Shown: positions 5,923 to 52,800, counted from the stretch's first letter. The stretch: DNA of 53,034 nt from Candidatus Moranbacteria bacterium GW2011_GWA2_39_41 (GCA_000995125.1 LBXA01000002.1:1-53034); one strand, 5' to 3'. The notes: generated by a model not told the origin, from the letters alone. Translations and numbers: made by a program.

Positions 5923-7620
5923 ATGGCTGATTTTAAAGATTTTTCCATAACTAAAACGGCGCTACTTGATTCAGGAACTGTCTCTGAGTCAGATTTTGCG
6001 CGAGCTGAAACATTAGCTGCGCAAGATAATATTGCATTCACGGAAGCAGTAGTGCGTCTTGAAATTCTTTCTGAAGAAGAAGTGACGCGAGTCATTGCTG
6101 ACGCACTAGGATTTCCGTATGTTGATCTTTCCAAGGAGACTGTCGCGCCAGAATTTCTGGCAGAAATTCCAGAAGTTGTGGCTCGCAAGAACCAAATTGT
6201 TCCATTCAAGAAAGATGCCGAAGGATTGCATCTGGCTATGGCTGATCCAATCAATTTAGAAATAAGCGATTTTATCGCGCGCAAAGAAGGAATGCCTGTG
6301 AAAGTGTATATGGCTACAGAACGGGACATTGAAAACACATTGGAGCGTTATGGCGGAGGACTTTCGGATGCGCTCAAGAAAACATTGGAGTTGGCAGAGA
6401 AAGCTGTTTCGGATGGAGGCGAACCGCCAATTGTGAATATTGTGCGCGACATCCTTTCTTTTGCCTATCAAAATCGCGCATCTGATGTGCATATCGAACC
6501 GCGTGAAGACATTGATTCGGTAATTAGATTTCGTATTGATGGAGTTTTGCATGATGTGGCCTTGCTTCCACAGTCTTTGCATAATCAAGTCATTTCTCGT
6601 ATCAAGGTTTTGGCACGTTTGCAAACCGATGAACATCAAAAACCGCAAGATGGAAAAATTGAATTTCCAATTGAACGGGAAAAAGTGGATGTGCGTGTTT
6701 CGCTGGTGCCAATTATGGAGGGCGAGAAAGTGGTGATGCGTCTTTTGTCGGAAAGATCTCGCCGATTTTCTTTGGCTAATTTGGGAATGGATGAACAGGA
6801 TTTGAAAAAAATTCATGATGCCTATGAAAAACCCTACGGTATGGTTTTGGCAACTGGACCAACTGGTTGTGGCAAGACAACTTCGCTCTATACAATTCTG
6901 AAGATTTTGAATGAACGCAATGTTAATATTATGACCATCGAAGATCCGGTAGAATATGACCTCGAAGGAGTTAATCAAATTCAGGTGAATACGAAAGCTA
7001 ATTTAACTTTTGCGACAGGACTACGCAGTATTTTACGTCAAGATCCGAACATTATTTTGGTGGGAGAAATCCGAGACAAAGAAACGGCCAATATTGCAAT
7101 CAATCTGGCCATGACTGGACATCTTGTGCTTTCAACTTTGCATACCAATGATGCGGCGACGGCTATTCCGCGATTTGTTGATTTGGGAGTTGAGCCATTT
7201 TTGATCGCCTCAACGGTGAATAGTATTTTGGCGCAACGGTTGGTGCGTAAAATTCACAGTGGTTGTCGAGCTAGCGAAGAAATTTCGGCTGAGGATGTGG
7301 CAAATCGCGTAGGCTGGGAAGCAACACAAAAAGTTTTTGGTGTATCCAAAAAGGATGCGAAAAAGAAAAAAATTACATTGTATAGAGGGAAAGGTTGCGA
7401 GGCCTGTCGGGGAACTGGCTTTGAAGGACGTATCGGTATGTTTGAAGTTTTGGTGATGGATGATGAGATTAAAAAAGCAATTATGAAAAATCAAGAAGCC
7501 GGATCGATTGCTGAATTGGCTAAAAGCCGTGGGATGCGAACAATGTTGGAAGACGGACTGGAAAAGGTCAAGATTGGACTGACCACTCTGGACGAAGTTT
7601 TGGGAGCGACAAAAGCTTAG
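5923..7620 (+). CDS. pilB: type IV pilus assembly ATPase PilB (GspE family)
   Basis: T2SSE N-terminal domain, Walker A GPTGCGKTT, Asp/His boxes, and a tetracysteine motif CRAS...GKGCEACRGTG. Confidence 0.92.
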   Translation: MADFKDFSITKTALLDSGTVSESDFARAETLAAQDNIAFTEAVVRLEILSEEEVTRVIADALGFPYVDLSKETVAPEFLAEIPEVVARKNQIVPFKKDAEGLHLAMADPINLEISDFIARKEGMPVKVYMATERDIENTLERYGGGLSDALKKTLELAEKAVSDGGEPPIVNIVRDILSFAYQNRASDVHIEPREDIDSVIRFRIDGVLHDVALLPQSLHNQVISRIKVLARLQTDEHQKPQDGKIEFPIEREKVDVRVSLVPIMEGEKVVMRLLSERSRRFSLANLGMDEQDLKKIHDAYEKPYGMVLATGPTGCGKTTSLYTILKILNERNVNIMTIEDPVEYDLEGVNQIQVNTKANLTFATGLRSILRQDPNIILVGEIRDKETANIAINLAMTGHLVLSTLHTNDAATAIPRFVDLGVEPFLIASTVNSILAQRLVRKIHSGCRASEEISAEDVANRVGWEATQKVFGVSKKDAKKKKITLYRGKGCEACRGTGFEGRIGMFEVLVMDDEIKKAIMKNQEAGSIAELAKSRGMRTMLEDGLEKVKIGLTTLDEVLGATKA

Positions 7621-9501: not shown

Positions 9502-9503
9502 AA

Positions 9504-9628
9504 TTAGGACTTACGCGTTTGCCACTTTGCCTAGAGTGTTCCTAAAGCTAAGCTTTTCGAGAACGCCATTCCCATTCATAAAGCTTAGCTTTAGATAGGC
9601 TGCCAAGAAGCAAACGTGTAAGTCCTAA
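9504..9628. repeat. 125-nt nested inverted repeat (MITE-like or structured RNA) between two pseudopilin genes
   Basis: Outer 19-nt arms TTAGGACTTACGCGTTTGC and GCAAACGTGTAAGTCCTAA match 18/19. Inner 15-nt arms CTAAAGCTAAGCTTT (9542-9556) and AAAGCTTAGCTTTAG (9580-9594) are perfect. Confidence 0.7.
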
Positions 9629-9633
9629 AAATA

Positions 9634-10098
9634 ATGAAAAAAAAATTAAAAGCATTTTCGGTCATTGAACTTGTGCTGTCGGCAGCACTCTTTTCGATTT
9701 TTTCTGTTTCGATTACACTGGCAGTTTTGCAAGGTAGTAGTGCAATTCAAGCGGGAATTCGCAGTGAAATAGCTCGACAGTTTGCTATGGAAGGCATTGA
9801 GGCGACGCGAGCTGTGCGAGCGCAATCTTTTGACGCATTGCAAAACACTGCTAGCTCTGGCATCGAGTTTGTCGATGGAAAATGGGAATTGGCTGGAGAG
9901 CAAGATGAAAAGGACGGCTATGTACGAAGAATTTCTGTGCAATCAGCGGAGCGTGATTCGGAAGGAAATGTCGTCGCTTCTGGCGGAACTGAAGATCTGG
10001 ATTTGAAGCTAATTGTCGTAGCTGTCACTAAAGATAATTATTCTGTGGATTTCTCAACCTATGTATCTAGACGAGAAATTGTTTTAATTGAGCCATAA
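9634..10098 (+). CDS. pseudopilin-like protein
   Basis: N-terminus is MKKKLKA|FSVIELVLSAALFSIF, with Ala at -1 and a conserved Glu at +5. Confidence 0.7.
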   Translation: MKKKLKAFSVIELVLSAALFSIFSVSITLAVLQGSSAIQAGIRSEIARQFAMEGIEATRAVRAQSFDALQNTASSGIEFVDGKWELAGEQDEKDGYVRRISVQSAERDSEGNVVASGGTEDLDLKLIVVAVTKDNYSVDFSTYVSRREIVLIEP

Positions 10099-13246: not shown

Positions 13247-13260
13247 TGTAGAAAAAACAA

Positions 13261-13291
13261 AAAAGCTGCCAAAAATCGGCAGCTTTTTTTG
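13261..13291. terminator. bidirectional intrinsic terminator between convergent genes
   Basis: AAAAAGCTGCC-AAAAATC-GGCAGCTTTTTTT: the stem is flanked by an A-run and a T-run. Confidence 0.8.
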
Positions 13292-16304: not shown

Positions 16305-17366
16305 CTAATTCTCACAACTAGCCGCACTCGCGCCAGCTGTTGCTGTGCCTTCGCCAAATCCGGCTGCCGGAGCAGTGACTGACAATTTAGCCTCACATTC
16401 TTTCGGCGCATTATTGAAAGCTCCGCAAATGGCTTTCAAAATACTAGCTGAATCTCGTCCAGATTGCGCAGTTACACCATTCACAACTAATGTTGGTGAA
16501 CCTTGCACGCCATATTTGACATTATCAGTCTTGTCCACGCCAAATGGAGGGAATTGTCCATTGCTCCATTTGCTTTTGTCGACTGCATCTTTCTTCACAT
16601 TAAATTGTGTATCAGTTTGTGCTACACAAGATTTGATAGCTCCAGTAGAAACTCTAGCAAAAGTCATGCAAGCGTCAGCTGTACCTTCGCCTTTTTTCAG
16701 AAAACAAGTTAAATAGGCTGACAATCGAGCGGGTTGATTCTTTTGGATGCAATATTGGCGTAAATTCTCATCAATTTCTTTGTCACCATGCATTGCATAA
16801 TCTACGAATTTCAATTTATAGTCAATCTTGCTACCTAATGTTGTAATCACCGGCAAAATTCCTTTTTCCATCTGAGTTCCATATGGGCAATAACTCATCA
16901 CAAAAAGCTCTACACTTGGCTTATCGGTTTTCGGGATTTCTTTGGCTTCAGCTACAGGTGCATCTGTGGCAAGTTTGTCAGCCGGATTTATCTCCATCGC
17001 TTGTGGGAAAAATTTTGCGCCATCAGTCGTGATGTAGGTTGGAATTTCTTGTTCACCAACTTTGATAGTCACGCGATACAAGCCATTTTCCAAAACTGAG
17101 TCCTTAAATTCTGCAGTCATGCCAGGTTGCAACAATGTTCCATTCACAAATTCCAAAACCTTAGTTTTCGCTCCTTCCAAACCAATGTCAGTTTTTTTGG
17201 TTTTATAATAGTATCCACCTGCTCCCAACAAAATTGCTAGCAAAACTACGCCAGCGACAATGTGCTTTTTCTTTTTGCCACATTCACAAACTTGTTTGAA
17301 GAATTTCTTTGAAGTAGATTCCGTCACCGGTGCCACCACAGTTTCTTCTGTTTTTATTTCGTCCAT
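16305..17366 (-). CDS. membrane-anchored thioredoxin-fold / DsbA-like thiol-disulfide oxidoreductase
   Basis: N-terminal TM helix, CPYG active-site motif in FVMSYCPYGTQ, a GSPTLVVNG motif, and several extra Cys residues. Confidence 0.7.
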   Translation of the reverse strand: MDEIKTEETVVAPVTESTSKKFFKQVCECGKKKKHIVAGVVLLAILLGAGGYYYKTKKTDIGLEGAKTKVLEFVNGTLLQPGMTAEFKDSVLENGLYRVTIKVGEQEIPTYITTDGAKFFPQAMEINPADKLATDAPVAEAKEIPKTDKPSVELFVMSYCPYGTQMEKGILPVITTLGSKIDYKLKFVDYAMHGDKEIDENLRQYCIQKNQPARLSAYLTCFLKKGEGTADACMTFARVSTGAIKSCVAQTDTQFNVKKDAVDKSKWSNGQFPPFGVDKTDNVKYGVQGSPTLVVNGVTAQSGRDSASILKAICGAFNNAPKECEAKLSVTAPAAGFGEGTATAGASAASCEN

Positions 17367-17395
17367 TTATATTATATGGCTATATTGTTAGAACA

Positions 17396-17416
17396 TTATA
17401 TTGTCAGACAATATAA
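17396..17416. repeat. 21-nt perfect palindrome in the promoter region of the DsbA-like gene
   Basis: TTATATTGTC-A-GACAATATAA is embedded in a longer imperfect inverted repeat (about 17381-17436). Confidence 0.7.
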
Positions 17417-17483
17417 CAATGTATCAATATAACAATTTTATTTGAATTACCTACCCAGTATACTTGATATTGACTTTTCCGTC

Positions 17484-20789: not shown

Positions 20790-22382
20790 TTGATTGGCTG
20801 GAGCTTGCTATCTTATTATTCCAAAACAACTGCCATTGCCGATTTTGGTGGAGAATACATCGAGGGTGCAGTTGGACAACCATCACATATCAATCCAATT
20901 CTTTCAGTTTCCAACAACACTGATGATGACCTAACTCAAATGATTTTTAGTGGTCTTTTTAAATACGACAACCAAGGCAAACTTATCAATGACCTTGTTT
21001 CCCACTATGAAGTTTCTGAGGACAAGACGCTATATACTGTTCATTTGAAAACCAATGCTGTTTGGCATGATGGACAACCCTTGACCGCCGCTGATGTCTT
21101 GTTCACCATCAATCTCATCGCTGACCCAGCCTACAAAAGCCCCTTGCGCTCGAATTGGCAAGGTATCGAGACTGACAGCGCTGATGATTATACCTTGAAT
21201 TTTCAGATCAAAACTCCCTACGTTGGATTTCTCAACAATCTAACTTTTGGAATTTTGCCAAAACATATCTGGGAATCAGTTGGGCCAGAAAAATTTGCCC
21301 TAACAAGTTTGAATCTAGAGCCAATTGGAAGTGGTCCCTACAAATACAACCCGTCATATATGAAAGATTCTTCTGGCAACATTCTTTCCTACAAATTAGT
21401 AGCCAATCCAAACTACTTTGGCAGCAAGCCCTATATTTCAAAAATAACCTTCAATTTCTATCCGGATGATGATGCGGTTATTTCAGCCTACAATCAAAAA
21501 GAAATCATGGGTATCAGCAATGTTTCTCCCAAAAAACTCACTGAACTCAAACTTCAGCAAAGCACTTCGGCTCACAAATTCAACATCCCTAGATATTTTG
21601 CTGTTTTCTTCAATCAAACCAAGAGTATATCTTTGGCTGATGACGAAGTGCGTGAGGCTTTGAGTCTGGCCACTAACCGCCAAGAAATCATTCAAAATGT
21701 TTTGGACGGCAATGGCAATCCAGTCTATTCGCCTATTCTAGCTGGCATGATTGGTTATGATGTTGATGCCAGCAAAACTGATTTTGACTTAGACAAGGCT
21801 AACAAAATCCTTGACGATGCCAAATGGAAGCGCGGTGATGATGGCTGGAGAAGCAAAGATAAAACACCCCTGCAAATCAATCTCGTGACCACTGATTGGC
21901 CGGAGCTGTCTCAAACTGCTGAAGTCATCAAGGCACAATGGGAAAAAGTTGGCGTGAAAGTTGAAGTCAACAATCTATCTATTTCTGATATTCAACAAAA
22001 TTACATTCGTCCACGAGAATATGATGCCATTCTATTTGGACAAGTTATGGGCGCTGACCCAGACCCATATTCCTTCTGGCACTCAACTCAAAAGAGAGAT
22101 CCGGGTCTAAACCTTGCTCTCTTTGGTGACTCTGACACAGACAAACTCATTGAGGATGGTCGCACAGAATTTGACATCAACAAACGCGCTGAAATCTATC
22201 ACGAATTTCAAGAAAAACTTTCTGTTGAAATTCCAGCCGTGTTTCTCTACAGTCCCGACTATGTCTATCCAGTCAACAAAAAAGTTCAAGGCATCGACAT
22301 CACAAACTTGATTCTACCATCCGAACGCTTCGCCAACATCGACAAGTGGTACATCAATACCAAAAGAATTTGGAATAAATAA
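20790..22382 (+). CDS. ABC transporter substrate-binding protein, family 5 (peptide/nickel type)
   Basis: SBP_bac_5-like sequence throughout. The true start is probably upstream: the in-frame TM-like sequence KVAFYSLLIILIGS precedes the TTG at 20790 (see findings). Confidence 0.85.
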   Translation: MIGWSLLSYYSKTTAIADFGGEYIEGAVGQPSHINPILSVSNNTDDDLTQMIFSGLFKYDNQGKLINDLVSHYEVSEDKTLYTVHLKTNAVWHDGQPLTAADVLFTINLIADPAYKSPLRSNWQGIETDSADDYTLNFQIKTPYVGFLNNLTFGILPKHIWESVGPEKFALTSLNLEPIGSGPYKYNPSYMKDSSGNILSYKLVANPNYFGSKPYISKITFNFYPDDDAVISAYNQKEIMGISNVSPKKLTELKLQQSTSAHKFNIPRYFAVFFNQTKSISLADDEVREALSLATNRQEIIQNVLDGNGNPVYSPILAGMIGYDVDASKTDFDLDKANKILDDAKWKRGDDGWRSKDKTPLQINLVTTDWPELSQTAEVIKAQWEKVGVKVEVNNLSISDIQQNYIRPREYDAILFGQVMGADPDPYSFWHSTQKRDPGLNLALFGDSDTDKLIEDGRTEFDINKRAEIYHEFQEKLSVEIPAVFLYSPDYVYPVNKKVQGIDITNLILPSERFANIDKWYINTKRIWNK

Positions 22383-22386
22383 TATC

Positions 22387-22496
22387 CTACGAATTACGAA
22401 ATTATACGAATGTACTAATGTGAGGTATAATTAGCTTTAGCGTAGTATAAAATTGTATTTATATTTCGTACATTCGTACAAATTCGTAATTCGTAG
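22387..22496. repeat. 110-nt inverted repeat built from TACGAAT words
   Basis: Left arm CTACGAATTACGAAATTATACGAATGTAC pairs with right arm GTACATTCGTACAAATTCGTAATTCGTAG at 27/29. The 52-nt loop contains GGTATAAT. Confidence 0.85.
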
Positions 22497-22511
22497 AATA
22501 AAATAAAAACT

Positions 22512-23120
22512 ATGCAAGTCGATTTTACTAATGTTCCCAAACACTATGCTTCACGCACTCACGAGAAAATGTCGGAAGTTCTGATGGATCCTAATGGTGC
22601 TGGTCCAGCCATTCATTATTACATGATTCGCGGTGGCGTTGACCAAAAAAACACGACCGTTTGGGAACCAGGCACAATCTCTGGCGAATACATCAAAACT
22701 TATGGTCACTACCACGTTGGTGAGTTGAGCGAAACATATTTCATCGCCTATGGTCAAGGCGTGGCACTTTTACAAAAATTAGCTGAGGATGAAAATGGCG
22801 AAATGATTCCAGATACCGTAGCCGAGTTCAAAGCCATTTCAGTCAAAACCGGTGATGAATTGTTTATGCCAGCTAAGTTCGGCCATTTGGTCGCCAATAC
22901 TGGCTCAACTTATTTCGTGACAATTGACGACAGTCCTGTAGATTTTGAAGATCGTGACCCATCCAGCTTTCCAGGACATGCTGATTATTCGCTAGTTAAG
23001 CAAATGCGAGGTTTCGCCTATTATGTTATTGAACATGCAGGAAAACCCGCACTTAAAAGAAACATGCTCTACAAAACTATCCTGAAAGAAGACCTGGGTG
23101 GTTTGCCAGTAATTGACTAA
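22512..23120 (+). CDS. cupin-type (archaeal-type) glucose-6-phosphate isomerase
   Basis: The GHYH...SETYF and FGHLVANTG metal-ligand motifs resemble cupin PGI (PF06560). Confidence 0.75.
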   Translation: MQVDFTNVPKHYASRTHEKMSEVLMDPNGAGPAIHYYMIRGGVDQKNTTVWEPGTISGEYIKTYGHYHVGELSETYFIAYGQGVALLQKLAEDENGEMIPDTVAEFKAISVKTGDELFMPAKFGHLVANTGSTYFVTIDDSPVDFEDRDPSSFPGHADYSLVKQMRGFAYYVIEHAGKPALKRNMLYKTILKEDLGGLPVID

Positions 23121-25899: not shown

Positions 25900-25920
25900 A
25901 AAATAACTTTATATAATGGG

Positions 25921-25947
25921 AAAACCGGATTTTAGTCCGGTTTTTTC
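25921..25947 (+). terminator. intrinsic terminator
   Basis: AAAACCGGA-TTTTAG-TCCGGTTTTTT. Confidence 0.75.
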
Positions 25948-27440: not shown

Positions 27441-27466
27441 AAAGAGCGGGGAACCGCTTTTTTTTG
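27441..27466 (+). terminator. intrinsic terminator
   Basis: AAAGAGCGG-GGAA-CCGCTTTTTTTT. Confidence 0.75.
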
Positions 27467-27511: not shown

Positions 27512-28789
27512 ATGATGAATAAATTTCCAGCAGGGTTTTTGTGGGGTGCAGCGACTTCCGGGCATCAAGTTGAAGGCAATACTAATAACGATTGGGTTCA
27601 GTGGGAGAAGGACAATGCTGAGAGAATTGCTGGGGAGGCTAATAAGAAGTGGGAAAAGTGGCAACAGGAAAAATTTCCCGAAATGTTCACGGTGGAAAAT
27701 TATATTTCTGGCCAAGCTTGCGACCAATATAATCGATATGCAGAAGATTTTGATTTGGCAAAAGCTGGTGGACACAATGCCCATCGATTGTCTTTGGAAT
27801 GGGCAAGAATTGAACCGAAAGAAGGAGAATTTAGTGCAGAGGGAATTGAACATTATCGAAAAGTTTTGACAGCTTTACGTGAGAGGGGATTGGAACCATT
27901 TGTAACCTTGTGGCATTGGACTGATCCAATTTGGGTCGGAGAGATGGGCGCTTGGGGCAACAAAGAAACAGTTAAATATTTCCATAGATATGCTGAGCGG
28001 GTTTTCAATGAATATAAAGATTTAGTAACATTTTGGATGCCACTCAATGAACCAAATACTGAAGTGTCGTTGGGCTATATGTTTGGCAATCAACCGCCAG
28101 GAATCAAAAGTAAACTTGCGGCCAACACCGCTTTCAAAAATTTGATGCAAGTTCAGAAAGATATCTATCAGGTTGCCAAAGCAGTTTCACCGGATTTTCA
28201 AATTGGCTGTTCGCATTTTATGTTCGATATAAAATCCCATAATCGCCTGCCATGGAATGTTTTGGCGACTAAGATTATGGATTATTTTGCCAACTATCGT
28301 TTTTTCAAAGCTTTCAATGATTCTTGTGATTTTTTTGGTATCCAATATTATCAATCATTTCATGTCAATTTCAGAATAGGTGGAAAATTCTTCGGACTTT
28401 TTGAAAATAAAGAAGTTTCAGAAAAAAGAAGTGATTTGGGTTGGCAGATTTATCCAGAAGGAATTTATAATGTGCTGACAAAGGCCGCCAAGAATGGAAA
28501 ACCTATTTATATAACTGAAAATGGACTAGCCGATGCGACTGATACCTATCGTTCCGAATTCATTCAAGAGCATCTGAAATATGTTCAAAAGGCGATTGCT
28601 GATGGCGTGGACATTCGCGGTTATTTCCATTGGTCACTAATAGACAACTTTGAATTTGTAGAAATGCGCGGGTTCTGGCCACGCTTTGGTCTGATAGAAA
28701 TCGATTACAAAACATTAGAGAGAAAGCCAAGAAAAAGTTTTTATGTTTATAAAGAGATAATTGAGAATAATGGGATAAAAGGGGAATAA
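27512..28789 (+). CDS. glycoside hydrolase family 1 (beta-glucosidase-like)
   Basis: FLWGAATSGHQVEG, the acid/base motif LNEP, and the nucleophile motif ITENG. Confidence 0.9.
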   Translation: MMNKFPAGFLWGAATSGHQVEGNTNNDWVQWEKDNAERIAGEANKKWEKWQQEKFPEMFTVENYISGQACDQYNRYAEDFDLAKAGGHNAHRLSLEWARIEPKEGEFSAEGIEHYRKVLTALRERGLEPFVTLWHWTDPIWVGEMGAWGNKETVKYFHRYAERVFNEYKDLVTFWMPLNEPNTEVSLGYMFGNQPPGIKSKLAANTAFKNLMQVQKDIYQVAKAVSPDFQIGCSHFMFDIKSHNRLPWNVLATKIMDYFANYRFFKAFNDSCDFFGIQYYQSFHVNFRIGGKFFGLFENKEVSEKRSDLGWQIYPEGIYNVLTKAAKNGKPIYITENGLADATDTYRSEFIQEHLKYVQKAIADGVDIRGYFHWSLIDNFEFVEMRGFWPRFGLIEIDYKTLERKPRKSFYVYKEIIENNGIKGE

Positions 28790-29022
28790 GGGGTGAAAGG
28801 GGCTGAAGGGGTGAGAAAAAGGGAGGGAAGGGGAATAAAGGGTGAAAAGGGAGAAAGGGATTGAAAGGGTGAGGAAAGGGGAGGAAGGGTAAGGAAGGGT
28901 GAGAGAAAATAAGATGAGATTTCCCATTCTAACATTCCCTTTAAACCCTTTTGCAACCCATTTAAATTCCCATTATATCCCATTACAATTCACTTTAAAT
29001 TTATAATCCCAGTAGTCCCTTT
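28770..29022. repeat. purine-rich GGGNAAA word array followed by its C-rich complement
   Basis: 28770-28905 carries repeated GGGGAATAA, GGGTGAAA and GGGAGAAA words. 28921-29022 carries TTCCCATT, TTCCCTTT, AACCCTTTT and AACCCATTT words. The left arm overlaps the last codons of the GH1 gene. Confidence 0.8.
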
Positions 29023-29069
29023 ATTTAAGTTTTATTAGCTACACATCTCAATTTAATTTGCAAAATATT

Positions 29070-29783
29070 ATGCTCAAACCACCGCGCCAACCATATGGAT
29101 TCAAAAAACTACTTGCTTATAGAAAAGCTGAAGAGTTGCAAATGGAATGTTCGCGGGTCACGGCGCAGTTTCCGAAATATAAAACTTTGATAGCGTTGGC
29201 TGATCAGATGGATAGGTTAGCGCGTTCGGCTAAGCAGAATATAGTTGAAGGTTGGAAAAGAAATTCGACGAAAGAATATTATGACTTCTTGGGTTTTTCA
29301 ATCGGCGCCAACACGGAATTGGAGGAAGATTGCAACGACATTTGGCGCGGAGCTTATCTGGATTTAATGGGAATAACGGGGGTAATGGGAGAAAAGGGAA
29401 TAAAGAGTGAAATGGGAGATGTGGAAAAAGGAAAAATGGAAATAATGGGAGAAAATGGAAATAGGGCACCCCATTTAATCCCTTTCAACCCTTTAGTCCC
29501 TTTGGATATTGAGAAAATTCCATTTTATCCCCTTAATAAAAATCTACCTCCAGTTATCCAATTGAAACTGCGTTGCAAGGAGCTCAATTATTTGCTGAGT
29601 CAGTTGCAAAAATCATTGGAAGTCAAAATGCTACAAGAAAAAACCTTGTCAGGTGGTGATATTGCCAGGAATTATTTGCGGGAGATAGATAAGAACAAAA
29701 AACAGGATGATATTTTCTTAGAACAAAACGGCTTTGTGCGTCTTGAGAACGGACAAGTTATTGCAAAAAATCAAGATGGATAA
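29070..29783 (+). CDS. four-helix-bundle protein (23S rRNA IVS protein family) with a repeat-encoded insert
   Basis: YRKAEELQMECSRVTAQFPK...LADQMDRLARSAKQNIVEGWKR...FLGFSIGANTELEED matches the family pattern. The central GITGVMGEKGIKSEMGDVEKGKMEIMGENGNRAPHLIPFNPLVPL is encoded by the repeat at 29365-29535. Confidence 0.75.
   Translation: MLKPPRQPYGFKKLLAYRKAEELQMECSRVTAQFPKYKTLIALADQMDRLARSAKQNIVEGWKRNSTKEYYDFLGFSIGANTELEEDCNDIWRGAYLDLMGITGVMGEKGIKSEMGDVEKGKMEIMGENGNRAPHLIPFNPLVPLDIEKIPFYPLNKNLPPVIQLKLRCKELNYLLSQLQKSLEVKMLQEKTLSGGDIARNYLREIDKNKKQDDIFLEQNGFVRLENGQVIAKNQDG
29365..29535. repeat. second copy of the GGGNAAA/complement inverted word array, in frame within a CDS
   Basis: G-rich arm is ATGGGAATAACGGGGGTAATGGGAGAAAAGGGAATAAAG...GGAAATAGGG. 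C-rich arm is CCCCATTTAATCCCTTTCAACCCTTTAGTCCCTTT. Confidence 0.8.
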
Positions 29784-34914: not shown

Positions 34915-34933
34915 ATAATTTTATACTGTCATA

Positions 34934-34988
34934 GTGTTAAATTGTTAAATTGTTTGAATGAATTACAAACATATTAACAATATAGCAA
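34934..34988. repeat. word-array hairpin in the rpmI-rplT spacer
   Basis: GTTAAATT x2 plus GTTTG pairs with CAAACATATTAACAATATAGCAA. About 18 of 23 positions are complementary, with a 9-nt loop. Confidence 0.7.
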
Positions 34989-35009
34989 TATAATCATTTA
35001 GCAATTAAT

Positions 35010-35219: not shown

Positions 35220-35228
35220 ATATTTTTA

Positions 35229-35330
35229 TAACTCGTAACTAGTAACTCGTAACTAGTAATTGGAGCGTCAGCTTATTAATTGGTTTATTTGTAATTTGTG
35301 CTAGTTACTGATTACCAGTTACTAGTTACT
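35229..35330. repeat. heptamer word-array hairpin in the infC-rpmI spacer
   Basis: The left array is (AACTCGTAACTAGT) x2, perfect. The right array is five heptamers CTAGTTA / CTGATTA / CCAGTTA / CTAGTTA / CTTAGTT, the approximate complement. Confidence 0.85.
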
Positions 35331-35334
35331 TAGT

Positions 35335-35889
35335 TTATACTTCTGGAGTTAGCACAGCATTAAAGCCACTCGGATATCTTTTCACTTCCTGATCAAGCTT
35401 GAAGGGGACAGTGATTGTTTTCAGAAAATCTTCCAGGTTCTTGCGAGCTAAATCTTGATGAGCTTTTTCTCGGCCACGCAAGAAAATTTCAACTTTCACT
35501 TTCTGACCTTTAGTAAGGAATTTTTCAGCCATGTCTTTCTTAACTTCCAAATCATGCGTGTCAGTTCGGAAACCAATACGAATCCCTTTGATATCAATCT
35601 TTTTTTGTTTGGCTTTGTTAACTCGATCAAGCCTAGATTGTTGATATTGATATTTGCCATAATCCATGATTTTGCAAACCGGTGGCTTGGCCATCGGCGC
35701 AATTTCCACTAGATCCAAATCTTGCTCGCGGGCAATTTGCAAAGCATCAAGCGGAGCCATAACCCCAAGTTGATTTCCCGCATCGTCAATTACGCGAATT
35801 TGTGGAACTCTAATGTGTTCATTTATTCTGGTGAGCGGACCCCTTTTTACGAACGGCCGCCTGATTGGTACTCTTCTAATATTTTTGAT
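35335..35889 (-). CDS. infC: translation initiation factor IF-3, non-AUG start
   Basis: Conserved IF-3 sequence (RINEHIRVPQIRVIDDAGNQLGV) continues upstream of the first ATG. That frame opens after TAA with no ATG/GTG/TTG. Candidate starts are ATC (35889) and ATT (35880). Confidence 0.9.
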   Translation of the reverse strand: MKNIRRVPIRRPFVKRGPLTRINEHIRVPQIRVIDDAGNQLGVMAPLDALQIAREQDLDLVEIAPMAKPPVCKIMDYGKYQYQQSRLDRVNKAKQKKIDIKGIRIGFRTDTHDLEVKKDMAEKFLTKGQKVKVEIFLRGREKAHQDLARKNLEDFLKTITVPFKLDQEVKRYPSGFNAVLTPEV

Positions 35890-35905
35890 ATTAAATAATT
35901 ATTTG

Positions 35906-36317
35906 TGGAGTTGATGGGAATCGCACCCATGTCCAAAATCATTCATCTAAAACAATCTACAAGCGTAGTTTACTTATTTGTTTCGATTGAAAAGTGATAA
36001 GCAAACAAAACCTTTTCAATCTATGACTAATGAAGTTTTATCGAATTGACTTAGAAAATATCAGATCGACTATCCTGATGTTTTGACACCGAATCCCATC
36101 TATCAGGAGTTGATGGTTCGATGACTACTGCGATAGCGCTGATTAGGCGATATTTAGGCAATAGCAACCGCAAAATTTGAAGTAAATGCTTGCGCAAATA
36201 CTGATTTCGCTTTTGTTATGAAGTTTGCACTTATAACTTTGATACAAATTTAACGAGGAATTATCATACTCGGCTTGCATATTTTAAATGTACGACCTGT
36301 CGAAACTAAGCAACCCC
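35906..36317 (-). ncRNA. ssrA: tmRNA (SsrA)
   Basis: 5' GGGGTTGCTTAGTTTCGACAGG. 3' T-arm ATGGG-TGCGATT-CCCAT, then CAACTCC-A. The acceptor stem has a G3-U pair. The putative tag frame GCA AAC TTC ... GCC TAA runs from 36228 down to 36154. smpB is adjacent. Confidence 0.9.
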
Positions 36318-36763: not shown

Positions 36764-36767
36764 GCGA

Positions 36768-36903
36768 GCATATTAACATTTAAGCATATTAGCATATTAG
36801 CACAGCGAGGGGATAATATGCCAGTAGATTACTAATGTTAAAATGTTCATATGTTAATATGCTAACGTGCTAATATGCTAACGTGCTAATATGTTAACGT
36901 GTT
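36768..36903. repeat. octamer word-array inverted repeat in the divergent smpB/argS spacer
   Basis: The left array is GCATATTA-ACATTTAA-GCATATTA-GCATATTA-GCAC. The right array is GTTAATAT plus (GCTAACGTGCTAATAT) x2 plus GTTAACGT. TAGCATATTAGCAC and GTGCTAATATGCTA are perfectly complementary. Confidence 0.85.
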
Positions 36904-36944
36904 GTAGCTTTATTTTTTCAGCGGGATAGGTTAGAATTAAAAAT

Positions 36945-38636
36945 ATGAAAAAGAAACTGGCGGAAATCATCAAAAAGGCTGTTTTGGAGCTGTTTGACCT
37001 TGAGCAAGCTGATTTTGCCGTGGAATATCCAAAAGATGAAAAATTTGGAGATTATGCGACTAATGTTGCGATGGTTTTGGCGAAAAAGTTGGGGAAGAGC
37101 CCGATGGAGATTGCTGAGGCAATCAAATTACAAATTACAAATTACAAATTACAAACTTTTGAAAAGATTGAGGTGGTGGCGCCAGGGTATATCAATTTTT
37201 ATTTGTCAGAAAAATATTTTCAAAATAAGGTTGTTGAAATAAATTTAGAGAAAGAAAAGTTTGGAGAAGGAGAAGCTGAGAAAAAGGAAAAAATAATGGT
37301 TGAATATTCTCAACCAAATACACTTAAGGAATTTCATATCGGTCATTTGCGGAATGTTTTGATTGGTTCGACCATCGTTGAGGTTTTACGCAAGGCTAAA
37401 TATAACGTAGTGGCAGCTAATTACATTGGCGATACTGGCTCTCACATCGCGAAGTGTTTGTGGGGGATTGAGAAATTTCATGCCAATGAAAATTTAGATG
37501 CAATTGAAAATAAAGCTGAATTTCTAGGTAAGACATATACTCAGGCAGTGCAGGCAATTGGAGAAAATCCTAATTATGAACAAGAGTTTAAATCTTTGCA
37601 AAATAAACTAGAAGATGGGGACATCAAATTGCAGGCATTATGGCAAAAAACTAGACAATGGTCATTGGATGAATTTCACTCAATCTATGAATTGTTAGGT
37701 GCCAACTTCGATGTCTATTTTTATGAAAGTGAGGAGGAGATTGAAGGCAAGAAGATAGTGCCAGAGTTGTTAGAAAGAAAAATCATTGAAAAGAGTGAAG
37801 GGGCAATTATTGCAAATCTTGAAGAGTATGGATTGGGCGTATTAGTGCTTGTTAGAAAAGACGGTAGTGCTTTGTATGGACTCAAAGACATTCCCTTGGC
37901 AATTAAAAAATTTGATAAATTTGAAATTGATACTAGTATATATCTAATCGATGTTCGTCAGGATTTATATTTCAAACAGTTGTTCAAGATTTTGGAATTG
38001 TATGGATTTAATAAAAAATTTGTTCATATTGGATACGATTTTGTTACCTTGAAAGGTGGAGAGGGAATGTCATCAAGAAAAGGGAATGTTATTTTGGCGC
38101 GTGATCTTATATCTGAAATTATCAGTAAGGTTGAGGTTAAGTTTCCAAATTCTCCAGATCCACTATCAATTGCGTTGGGTGCTTTGAAATTCACAATGCT
38201 CAAATATTCTACTGGCACAAAAATAGAGTTTGATATTGAAGAATCGGTTAAATTGGAGGGAGCAACTAGTCCCTATGTTCAATATGCACATGCTAGAATC
38301 TGTAGTATTTTGAAAAAAGCAGAGGAGGCAGGAGTTGATTTTGCTAAGGCAGATTTGTCGTTACTTATCCACGAAAAAGAGCTTAGTTTAGCTAAGGAGC
38401 TGGATAAATTCCCAGAACTTATTGAAGAAATATCGAAAACTTATGAAGTTCAAAAAATTCCATATTATGCTATTAGGTTGGCTGACAAATTCCATTCATT
38501 CTACAGTGCTTGCAAAGTGATTGACGAGGAGAATTTGGAATTGACCAAAGCGCGTTTGAATTTGATAACGGCGGTGAAGATTGTGTTGGCAGAAACTTTG
38601 AATTTGATTGGCGTGAGCGCGCCAGAAAAAATGTAA
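36945..38636 (+). CDS. argS: arginyl-tRNA synthetase
   Basis: HIGH-type motif FHIGHLRN and a class I core with a DALR anticodon-binding C-terminus. Confidence 0.95.
   Translation: MKKKLAEIIKKAVLELFDLEQADFAVEYPKDEKFGDYATNVAMVLAKKLGKSPMEIAEAIKLQITNYKLQTFEKIEVVAPGYINFYLSEKYFQNKVVEINLEKEKFGEGEAEKKEKIMVEYSQPNTLKEFHIGHLRNVLIGSTIVEVLRKAKYNVVAANYIGDTGSHIAKCLWGIEKFHANENLDAIENKAEFLGKTYTQAVQAIGENPNYEQEFKSLQNKLEDGDIKLQALWQKTRQWSLDEFHSIYELLGANFDVYFYESEEEIEGKKIVPELLERKIIEKSEGAIIANLEEYGLGVLVLVRKDGSALYGLKDIPLAIKKFDKFEIDTSIYLIDVRQDLYFKQLFKILELYGFNKKFVHIGYDFVTLKGGEGMSSRKGNVILARDLISEIISKVEVKFPNSPDPLSIALGALKFTMLKYSTGTKIEFDIEESVKLEGATSPYVQYAHARICSILKKAEEAGVDFAKADLSLLIHEKELSLAKELDKFPELIEEISKTYEVQKIPYYAIRLADKFHSFYSACKVIDEENLELTKARLNLITAVKIVLAETLNLIGVSAPEKM
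37124..37156 (+). repeat. (CAAATTA)4 + CAAAC heptamer microsatellite in frame within argS
   Basis: Four perfect tandem heptamers at 37124-37151 encode KLQITNYKLQ. Confidence 0.9.
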
Positions 38637-50263: not shown

Positions 50264-50264
50264 C

Positions 50265-50343
50265 TGTCATTCCAGTGAAAACGGGAATCCAGTCGCACAT
50301 CATTAAGTTTCTACACTAGATTCCCGTTTTCACTGGAATGACA
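50265..50343. repeat. perfect 25-bp inverted repeat filling the gatC-gatA spacer
   Basis: TGTCATTCCAGTGAAAACGGGAATC (50265-50289) pairs with GATTCCCGTTTTCACTGGAATGACA (50319-50343), leaving a 29-nt loop. Each arm is also partly self-complementary (ATTCC...GGAAT). Confidence 0.95.
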
Positions 50344-50348
50344 AAAAT

Positions 50349-52667: not shown

Positions 52668-52676
52668 CAAGAAGCG

Positions 52677-52796
52677 AATTTTCAATTTTCAATTCACAAT
52701 TTTCAAACAATTTTCAAGGATTAAATTTTCAATAAGTTTGGAAATTTGGACATTATGAATTGTTTAGAAATTAGAAATTGGTAATTAAAAATTACC
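52677..52796. repeat. AATTTTC heptamer array and partially complementary TAGAAAT array in the tRNA spacer
   Basis: Five AATTTTC copies and one variant lie at 52677-52730. TAGAAAT x2 lies at 52765-52778. A GGTAATT-AAA-AATTACC hairpin lies at 52780-52796. Confidence 0.75.
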
Positions 52797-52800
52797 GTTT

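Follow-up and report, generated by a model that had tools for sequence, protein, structure and literature searches.

Why should the gap between two genes of a closely packed genome be filled, nearly from stop codon to start codon, by a long inverted repeat built of an iterated short word? The case considered here comes from a 53,034-nucleotide (nt) stretch, below called the window (LBXA01000002.1:1-53034, assembly GCA_000995125.1), of a groundwater Candidatus Moranbacteria contig (bacterium GW2011_GWA2_39_41; Candidate Phyla Radiation, CPR, or Patescibacteria; 39% GC). The spacer in question (22383-22511) separates the gene of a family-5 solute-binding protein (SBP) from that of a cupin-type glucose-6-phosphate isomerase (GPI), both lying on the + strand. 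Our analysis makes it probable that the 110-nt structure in this spacer is a miniature, devoid of an open reading frame (ORF), of a family of small palindrome-ended cassettes, which resembles the intervening sequences (IVSs) of rRNA genes and sits in an mRNA spacer; it is best read as being related to the full-size cassette in the way a miniature inverted-repeat transposable element (MITE) is related to its transposon.

The inverted repeat at 22383-22500 is genuine and far from chance. It starts 0-4 nt past the SBP stop codon and ends 11-15 nt ahead of the GPI start codon (ATG at 22512). A repeat search gave arms of 36 nt each (22383-22418 and 22465-22500), 89% complementary and 46 nt apart, with core arms of 29 nt (22387-22415 and 22468-22496) that are complementary at 27 of 29 positions. 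Both arms consist of the words TACGAA(T/A) and (A/T)TTCGTA, spaced 7-10 nt. A previous inspection of the same DNA, made without database searches (the sequence-only reading), had described a 110-nt inverted repeat between a stop and the next start, with 29-nt arms of TACGAAT-type words; all of the described features were found in their places, and the count of complementary positions came out the same. The ungapped inverted-repeat score is 24, as compared to 7.7 +/- 1.3 (maximum 13) in 100 dinucleotide shuffles. The spacer folds with -42.8 kcal/mol as + strand RNA (z -7.9), -44.0 kcal/mol as - strand RNA (z -9.3) and -25.4 kcal/mol as DNA (z -7.1), and in each case none of 200 shuffles was as stable; the comparison of folding energy with shuffled controls, which the sequence-only reading had itself proposed, thus speaks for a real structure.

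A dispersed family of word-built elements

The words are not confined to this spacer. In 680 kb of Moranbacteria-type sequence from 39 genomes (the window and 38 orthologous loci fetched via the GPI gene; comparison loci are labelled L002, L036, L099, etc.), at least seven different spacers contain TACGAA/TTCGTA arrays, the copy density being seemingly low (about 20 clusters). Scanning metagenomes for three TTCGTA words yielded at least 120 loci; among the matches listed, contig GC ranges from 0.26 to 0.70, 95 of 128 arrays are intergenic, and 31 have a complementary array nearby. Low-GC copies agree in their termini, CTACGAATTACGAAT...ATTCGTAATTCGTAG, and in the irregular distances between their words, which rules out independent slippage as their source. 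Three copies are present in one ribosomal-protein operon (L130, spacers rpsC|rplP, rplN|rplX, and rpsH|rplF), and two-armed copies are found upstream of infA (L049) and, in L118, in the spacer of two tRNAs that precede a 23S gene. In L099, a copy replaces the terminal loop of 23S helix 45 (large subunit model positions 1206-1226), in the hairpin directly preceding GGUAGGGGAGCGUUC, i.e., at the classical site of the intervening sequences excised by RNase III (PMC4990558); it is this member of the family, and not the window element, that occupies an IVS site. One arm of the helix-45 copy is identical to the 32-nt core of the window right arm, and the right arm of the L036 element, located in the same SBP|GPI spacer as that of the window, is identical to an arm of the rRNA copy at 34 of 34 positions. 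In L029, L023, and L025, the 32-nt right-arm sequence stands alone in the lexA|uvrA spacer (a solo array). The arms cluster by genome and not by locus: those of L029 are closest to the solo uvrA-leader array of L029 and L023, and the L130 copies group together. The dispersal is that expected of a MITE, both to unrelated loci of one contig (L130) and across genomes. The sequence-only reading had suggested selection for structure, or a common generating mechanism, rather than for sequence; conservation of words, termini, and irregular spacing across unrelated loci and genomes, together with their tie to one particular cargo gene in Patescibacteria (see below), contradicts the latter part, whereas a common generating mechanism is borne out in the form of a dispersed, cassette-derived repeat family, that is, as more than slippage alone.

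The 23S gene of L099 (2183-5990) is 3.8 kb long against a 2.9-kb model, which implies further insertions besides the 100-nt TACGAAT element. The same locus contains solo TACGAA arrays about 335 nt upstream of the 23S gene (6325-6362) and downstream of the 5S gene (704-790); these two are not complementary to each other, and their role as a processing stem of rRNA was rejected. In L042, L044, L046, L060, and L108, all from metagenomes, short-loop TACGAAT...ATTCGTA hairpins lie in contigs with 57-69% GC, where such an AT-rich word is unexpected, and several of these loci share the junction TACGAATGAAGAG; horizontal spread is suspected.

The history of the window copy can be followed in the orthologous spacers, for which filled and empty sites were compared in alignment A1. 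At the SBP|GPI site, the two-armed TACGAAT element is also present in L036, L029, and L022, and L014 (CACGAAT/ATTCGTG) and L016 (CGCATA/TGCGAT) have arrays that are likewise two-armed but consist of related words. In L032 (TACTAAT x4) and L027 (TGCGAAT x3), the array is one-sided and its word altered in every copy, direct-only arrays being found in these two loci and in L018 and L021, and in some relatives the spacer is taken up by unrelated hairpins. L002, L009, L023, and L025 are clean empty sites, from which the element is absent exactly from terminus to terminus. Considering that filled L029 and empty L024 have 94.8% identity in GPI DNA, this presence/absence difference is recent and precise. 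Between the window and L036, identity amounts to 91-92% in the arms, 74-80% in the coding flanks, 61% at third codon positions, and about 61% in the loop, the last value being near chance for AT-rich sequence. Conserved arms, a variable spacer, and solo arms as decay products (L032, L027, and the uvrA leaders) are features of REPINs, inverted doublets of repetitive extragenic palindromic (REP) sequences. A private left-arm variant, GTACTAAT, is common to the window, L036, and L029, which indicates that the window copy is old and vertically inherited; it is also dispensable.

At what level pairing of the arms is kept was addressed with 53 hairpins that have a long loop and lie between genes of the same strand. 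Read on the sense strand, the mismatches in their stems comprise 18 G·U and 27 A·C pairs, and sense RNA folds better than antisense in 26 cases against 27 (Wilcoxon p = 0.69). With no excess of G·U and no advantage of the sense strand, nothing indicates selection on the transcript, and the arms seem to be kept complementary as DNA. Where two elements differ, each carries its change in both arms, e.g., CCTTACG/CGTAAGG in L029 vs. TCTACG/CGTAGA in the window and L036, or the two-arm change TACGAAC/TACGAAA of L022 and L084. The orthologous spacers, whose comparison for compensatory changes the sequence-only reading had named as a check, show co-variation of the arms, but its idea of selection for structure finds no evidence at the RNA level. 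The words themselves turn over. Arrays homogenise within an arm, as in the lexA leader of L029, where one arm is (ATGCGAAT)x4 and the other (ATTAGC)x5, with one systematic mismatch per word; the leader of L023 has different words at the same place and under the same promoter, the LexA proteins being 98.6% identical. In both of these leaders (L029, 3214-3300; L023, 3481-3560), a TTGCAG-N17-TAGAAT promoter is followed by the two-armed word arrays, which end about 10 nt ahead of the lexA ATG.

Cassettes with a gene between the arms

A search for opposite TACGAA arrays spaced more widely revealed three contigs where the arrays bracket a small gene. The bracketed gene encodes a GxxExxY protein (TIGR04256, PF13366, PD-(D/E)XK; E-values 1e-29 to 1e-31) in L147 and L155 and a four-helix-bundle "23S rRNA IVS protein" (TIGR02436/PF05635) in L119; PF05635 cargo between TACGAAT/TATGAAT arms was found in L119, L131, and L144. 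Seven of nine GxxExxY and PF05635 homologs with usable flanks in the loci already collected stand between complementary word arrays that score above shuffles. One of the seven is the homolog in L014, a CPR locus not chosen by word, with AATTTCT words (score 22 vs. a maximum of 12). The PF05635 gene of the window (Table 1) is another, with a flanking inverted-repeat score of 12 vs. a shuffle maximum of 10. Upstream of this gene, a run of GGG-containing 8-9-mers is followed by complementary CCC-words; a second GGG/CCC word pair lies inside the ORF, after position 74 of the 106 positions of the Pfam model, and the 241-aa frame reads through it. The folds of these GGG/CCC regions (z -2.3 and +0.15) do not surpass those of shuffles with matched composition.

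To avoid a bias toward the word, homologs were retrieved by protein similarity alone and their contexts fetched afterwards. All five GxxExxY genes of the Patescibacteria type obtained in this way are bracketed by TACGAA-type arms, with the termini GCTACGAAATACGAAT...ATTCGTATTTCGTAGC in four loci and a TACAAA-word variant in the fifth (L174). The ungapped score exceeds all shuffles in three of the five, namely L172 (34/34, perfect), L173 (39/39, perfect), and L170 (15 vs. 11); in L171 (10 vs. 12) and L174 (9 vs. 9) it does not, the word arrays being plain in the sequence. In four of the five cassettes, the last left word runs directly into the ATG (in L171, the ATG is about 22 nt downstream), and in most cassettes the stop codon abuts the first right word. 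The cassettes are wedged in pilB|pilC, secD|secF, and rpsG|fusA. The arms of the window element are 74-88% identical to those of the GxxExxY cassettes, left arm to left arm 79-88%, as compared to a shuffle maximum of 66%, and the window left arm retains TACGAATG, the source of the ATG in the cargo-bearing cassettes. Longer relatives that code for a protein and share the termini, as MITEs have them, are seen in four of the five fetched loci and in L147 and L155.

The association extends to another phylum and other words. In cyanobacteria, five of six independent genomes have the PF05635 gene between complementary heptamer arrays, with five different words and scores of 23-32 vs. shuffle maxima of 9-12; the Nostoc/Anabaena cassette, (AATTCAA)x4-ORF-(TTTTGAA)x4, is located between cysS and pmbA.

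Origin of the element and alternative explanations

The cassette origin that we favour would work as follows. The full-size form, of about 470 bp, comprises a left arm of heptamer or octamer words, a small ORF filling the loop, and a complementary right arm. The TACGAAT-armed cassettes of Patescibacteria carry the GxxExxY protein with its PD-(D/E)XK nuclease fold (TIGR04256), stems of the same type elsewhere carry the four-helix-bundle protein (PF05635/TIGR02436), and ORF-less versions of these stems occur as intervening sequences in the loop of 23S helix 45. We suppose that the copies spread or homogenise by a DNA-level process leaving no target duplication, in which the PD-(D/E)XK cargo may take part, and that replication slippage, favouring units of 7-8 nt, would then make the number and identity of the words drift. 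On transcription of the SBP-GPI region, a stem of about 30 bp would form and could be cut by RNase III, as suggested by the stem length, the 28-bp stem of the Coxiella IVS (PMC4990558), and the helix-45 copy. The element would be tolerated between cistrons, at most modulating processing or stability of the flanking mRNAs.

Several observations weigh against this origin. The window element and the cassettes are linked by shared termini only, and a descent by internal deletion would have left no trace in the loop, where no remnant of an ORF is recognisable in any frame. No GxxExxY gene is present in the 53-kb window, and no transposase was seen among its proteins. Unlike a typical MITE, the element has no duplicated flank in the alignment of filled and empty sites. 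The antiquity of the copy speaks in the same direction, and the conservation of the arms beyond the neighbouring genes could mean a host-level function and not homogenisation between copies. Three of four orthologous copies have a TAnAAT-like box behind the left arm. As to RNase III, no gene for it was found in the sequence examined of these genomes, and a signature search through all collected sequence gave one match, on an unrelated contig, which is uninformative for these genomes.

One might instead regard the hairpin as an RNA element that evolved locally under selection for structure and has no link to mobile cassettes, being, e.g., a processing site, a block to 3'-exonucleases or RNase J, or a translational insulator. 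Its strong fold would suit this, as would the arms that co-vary between orthologs (L029 vs. the window and L036; L022, L084) and are conserved beyond the coding flanks, the position always between a stop and the next start, and the RNase J gene present in the window. Yet there is neither a G·U bias nor a sense-strand advantage, the sequence and not pairing alone is common to unrelated loci and cargo cassettes, solo arms persist, the element is precisely absent from close relatives, and in the L029 lexA leader the words of one arm changed together so that pairing was lost while the arrays were kept; such an RNA element is thus unlikely. A by-product of local replication slippage and template switching, arising where spacers are AT-rich and genome repair is weak and having neither dispersal nor function, is in our opinion quite improbable. 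It would account for the excess of period-7/8 arrays in spacers, an excess of heptamers which the literature ascribes to polymerase slippage (PMC4692102), for the direct-only arrays of the same spacer in L018, L021, L027, and L032, and for the concerted change of words (TACTAAT x4 in L032, TGCGAAT x3 in L027, ATTAGC x5 in L029), but it cannot make unrelated loci and different genomes agree in their termini and in an irregular spacing of 8, 10, and 7 nt, and it leaves the association of TACGAA arms with GxxExxY genes in all five loci unexplained. As the sole explanation slippage is largely refuted, and we keep it to explain how the arms are remodelled once inserted.

That the arms are arrays of operators for a DNA-binding regulator, such as a LexA-like SOS repressor, around a promoter in the loop seems very unlikely to us, although relatives carry the same array in the lexA|uvrA spacer, ahead of lexA, and close to uvrB, GTAC-N4-GTAC is restricted to these arrays, several orthologs have a -10-like box after the left arm, and similar paired arrays of Geobacter were guessed to be "global regulator sites" (PMC2700814). 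The LexA/SOS version was dropped in view of the arrays in a co-transcribed ribosomal-protein operon, in the loop of 23S helix 45, between tRNAs, and around the ORFs of full-size copies, most of which would be senseless places for an operator; moreover, lexA leaders with different words belong to nearly identical LexA proteins, the arrays are not confined to promoters of DNA-damage genes, and the region upstream of uvrB in the window contains none of the words. Nor was any sigma-70 promoter called in 22200-22700, the rules for sigma-70 possibly not being those of CPR: the TATAAT of the loop lacks an acceptable -35 hexamer at the distance of 16-18 nt. The sequence-only reading had mentioned the loop sequence GGTATAAT; it is absent from the loops of other members of the family, which differ completely from each other and are replaced by an ORF in the full-size relatives, so that it is probably incidental; promoter function is not supported, although this TATAAT may act as a weak local promoter, given the similar box in three of the four orthologous copies. 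Finally, an unusual intrinsic terminator or an invertible, phase-variable promoter between inverted repeats is hardly credible. A hairpin directly after a stop codon, a T-run after the hairpin in one member of the family (L042), and the TATAAT between the repeats might be taken as hints; but the terminator scan of 22200-22700 found none, and, as the sequence-only reading rightly held, the hairpin is not a canonical terminator: its arms have 30% GC and are followed by GAATAAAATAAAAAC without a T-run, such a run being present in no more than one or two of the 28 members of the family, and copies lie inside operons. The canonical terminators with a GC stem and a T-run which that reading had contrasted with it are indeed present, at 13259-13289, 25918-25947, and 27441-27462. 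As for inversion, a 46-nt spacer is very short for a recombinase, no recombinase gene was found in the window, and the loop has the same orientation in three independent assemblies (the window, L039, and L040).

The element of the window, taken as a miniature cassette, combines properties of several known systems. The IVSs of 23S rRNA in Coxiella, Leptospira, and Salmonella are likewise small insertions with terminal inverted repeats and a stem of about 28 bp, comparable to the 29-36 bp of the window stem, and with a loop that is empty or contains PF05635 (S23p); a copy of our family with an identical arm is found in the helix-45 loop (L099). In Coxiella, the helix-45 IVS is a selfish element that measures 428 nt, contains a PF05635 ORF, and has a 28-bp terminal stem, which RNase III cuts in the middle; the tandem heptamers at its 5' end vary by strain (PMC4990558). 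Many short ORF-less insertions at classical IVS sites have been described for CPR rRNA genes (PMC11270868). In contrast to IVSs, the window element lies in an mRNA spacer between protein genes, its stem consists wholly of word arrays, and the Patescibacteria cargo is GxxExxY PD-(D/E)XK instead of S23p. Paired arrays are known from Xanthomonas, with 70-75 convergent pairs of GGGAATC heptamer arrays per genome, near the end of the upstream ORF, species-variable, and of open function (PMC4692102), and from Geobacter metallireducens, with paired tandem 7-9-mers (GTTGCTYN, TCTCCGTS, and MTYCTGA) guessed to be regulator sites (PMC2700814); TAACTGA repeats are found in Beggiatoaceae and cyanobacteria (PMC4679880). 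These arrays and the cyanobacterial heptamers of the short tandemly repeated repetitive (STRR) type share with ours tandem 7-9-nt words and a complementary array on the other strand at a variable distance, and the Xanthomonas and Geobacter ones also the intergenic position near the end of the upstream ORF and the variability between close relatives (PMC4692102, PMC2700814). The respective papers mention no cargo genes, rRNA copies, or defined termini and propose G-quadruplexes or regulator sites, whereas here the arrays are the stems of a cassette family.

MITEs such as the Neisseria Correia element or the enterobacterial repetitive intergenic consensus (ERIC) are similar in being non-coding and about 100-150 bp long, in having terminal inverted repeats and scattered intergenic and intercistronic positions, in being transcribed into long hairpins, and in their relation to longer elements with the same ends; the window element, with inverted arms of 29-36 nt on about 115 nt of non-coding DNA, is well within their size (<300 bp). 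They differ in that the TACGAAT family shows no target-site duplication, has longer relatives that encode a PD-(D/E)XK or four-helix-bundle protein and not a recognised transposase, and has arms that are word arrays remodelled by slippage. With REPs and REPINs, mobilised by a Y1 transposase (RAYT), it shares the inverted doublet with conserved arms and variable spacer, the solo arms as decay products, long vertical persistence, homogeneity within a genome, and the absence of target duplication. The REP unit, however, is a short palindrome, while a TACGAAT arm is an array of directly repeated words and contains no internal palindrome; no RAYT is encoded in the window, and the copy density seems low.

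In the literature outside subscription journals, we found no prior description of TACGAAT arrays or of CPR intergenic hairpins, no word-array stems described around PF05635 or GxxExxY genes outside rRNA, and no paper connecting IVSs, heptamer arrays, and these genes. On these data, a word-stemmed cassette, with or without cargo, in any transcribed spacer brings into one frame four things described separately and left unexplained: rRNA IVSs with S23p ORFs; the abundant orphan GxxExxY and four-helix-bundle families; the paired heptamer arrays of Xanthomonas, Geobacter, and cyanobacteria; and the short ORF-less insertions in CPR rRNA. A wider generalisation, which we put forward only tentatively and hold to be doubtful in its full extent, is that heptamer-word hairpins are the ends of an unrecognised cross-phylum class of mobile cassettes with GxxExxY or PF05635 cargo, which would insert without target duplication into operon and tRNA/rRNA spacers and rRNA helix loops, be rendered harmless by RNase III excision, and leave behind ORF-less miniatures and solo arrays. 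If true, this class would account for much of the heptamer excess in bacterial intergenic DNA and would give two large orphan protein families their first functional context. It can be tested already now whether the GxxExxY nuclease acts on TACGAAT hairpin or cruciform DNA, whether RNase III excises the stems from mRNAs and thereby reshapes operon expression in streamlined genomes, and whether ORF-less copies track cargo-bearing ones, as REPINs track RAYTs. In annotation, such spacers should not be called promoters, operators, or terminators.

Other hairpins and features of the window

The features of the SBP-GPI region and the PF05635 gene of the window are listed in Table 1. An Rfam search over the window yielded only a tmRNA and three tRNAs, with no match at any hairpin.

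Table 1. Coordinates of the word-built element, its neighbours, and the PF05635 gene in the window
Feature	Position	Strand	Remarks
SBP_bac_5 / family-5 solute-binding protein gene	20790..22382	+	Pfam PF00496, E 1.9e-76; upstream; stop abuts the element
Left arm (terminal inverted repeat)	22383..22418	+	TATCCTACGAATTACGAAATTATACGAATGTACTAA; TACGAA(T/A) words
Loop	22419..22464	+	46 nt (52 nt by the 29-nt-arm definition); AT-rich, partly self-pairing
-10-like box in the loop	22424..22431	+	GGTATAAT; TATAAT at 22426-22431; probably incidental
Right arm	22465..22500	+	TTCGTACATTCGTACAAATTCGTAATTCGTAGAATA; ATTCGTA words, spacings 8, 10, 7 nt
A-rich leader of the GPI gene	22501-22511	+	directly after the element
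Cupin-type glucose-6-phosphate isomerase (GPI) gene	22512..23120	+	Pfam PF06560; downstream
PF05635/TIGR02436 "23S rRNA IVS / four-helix-bundle" gene	29058..29783	+	among GGGAAT/ATTCCC arrays 28775-29035, 29365-29535

The hairpin of the SBP|GPI spacer has company. In a census of 363 spacers of 40-400 nt from the Moranbacteria-type sequence, 41 contained an inverted repeat with a score of at least 14, vs. none of 363 length-matched coding controls. Hairpins with a short loop and a T-tail cluster between convergent genes, as terminators should, and long-loop hairpins are found chiefly between same-strand genes, where they typically occupy the whole spacer. Among tandem arrays in spacers, periods of 7 (56 arrays) and 8 (26 arrays) dominate, those of period 7 being about ten times denser in spacers than in coding DNA, which agrees with the known unexplained excess of heptamers in bacterial intergenic DNA (PMC4692102). 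In the window, six spacers fold far beyond shuffles: that at 22383 (z -7.9), 9502-9630 (z -8.9), 35225-35335 (z -6.6), 36764-36905 (z -4.5), 50264-50345 (z -12.1), and 52669-52800 (z -4.0); the hairpins at 34915-35000 (z -2.0) and 17360-17450 (z -1.6) are marginal or non-significant. The claim of at least six spacers with the same architecture and a different word in each thus stands as to six non-random hairpins, but only those at 22383, 35229, 36767, and 52677 are word-built, and those at 9504 and 50265 belong to separate dispersed inverted-repeat families with arms that are not word arrays.

The hairpin at 50265-50343 fills the 85-nt spacer between gatC and gatA, two genes that normally abut; its 29-nt arms are 97% complementary. 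Each arm is a small hairpin unit, TGTCATTCC-N-GGAATCYAG, the element as a whole being a doublet of this unit, which occurs singly or as an inverted doublet at more than 12 other loci (L004, L005, L008, L009, L013, L014, L032, L063, L065, and L150 among them). It looks REP/REPIN-like and is nearer to a true REPIN than the TACGAAT element is. The other family that is not word-built, named here after TTAGGACTTACG, is represented by a 125-nt rod-like nested hairpin (9504-9628) between two pilin-like genes; its termini, TTAGGACTTACGCGTTTG, also occur at L003 20049, L030 6096, L032 113 and 10223, and L017 9790.

As to the remaining word-built hairpins, that of the tRNA-Met|tRNA-Asp spacer (52669-52800) consists of (AATTTTC)n followed by (GAAATT/TTAGAAA)n, none of 200 shuffles folding as well, and is another example in a transcribed and processed spacer. 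The hairpin at 36767-36903 (AGCATATT x4.5 vs. TAATATGCTAACGTGC x2.9) lies between divergent smpB (-) and argS (+), which shows that such elements are not restricted to positions downstream of a gene; the tmRNA gene (35903-36317, - strand) comes directly after smpB. A hairpin of GTAACTN words (35229-35335) is located between infC and the next gene of the minus strand, and in an unrelated contig (L149, 12694-12760) TTGTAAC is repeated at least ten times in a run. One perfect heptamer array, CAAATTA x4.6, was detected by Tandem Repeats Finder within the coding region of argS (37124-37155). Inspected by eye only, gene starts across the window (e.g., those at 9634, 22512, 36945, and 50349) are preceded by A-rich sequence with no obvious Shine-Dalgarno motif.

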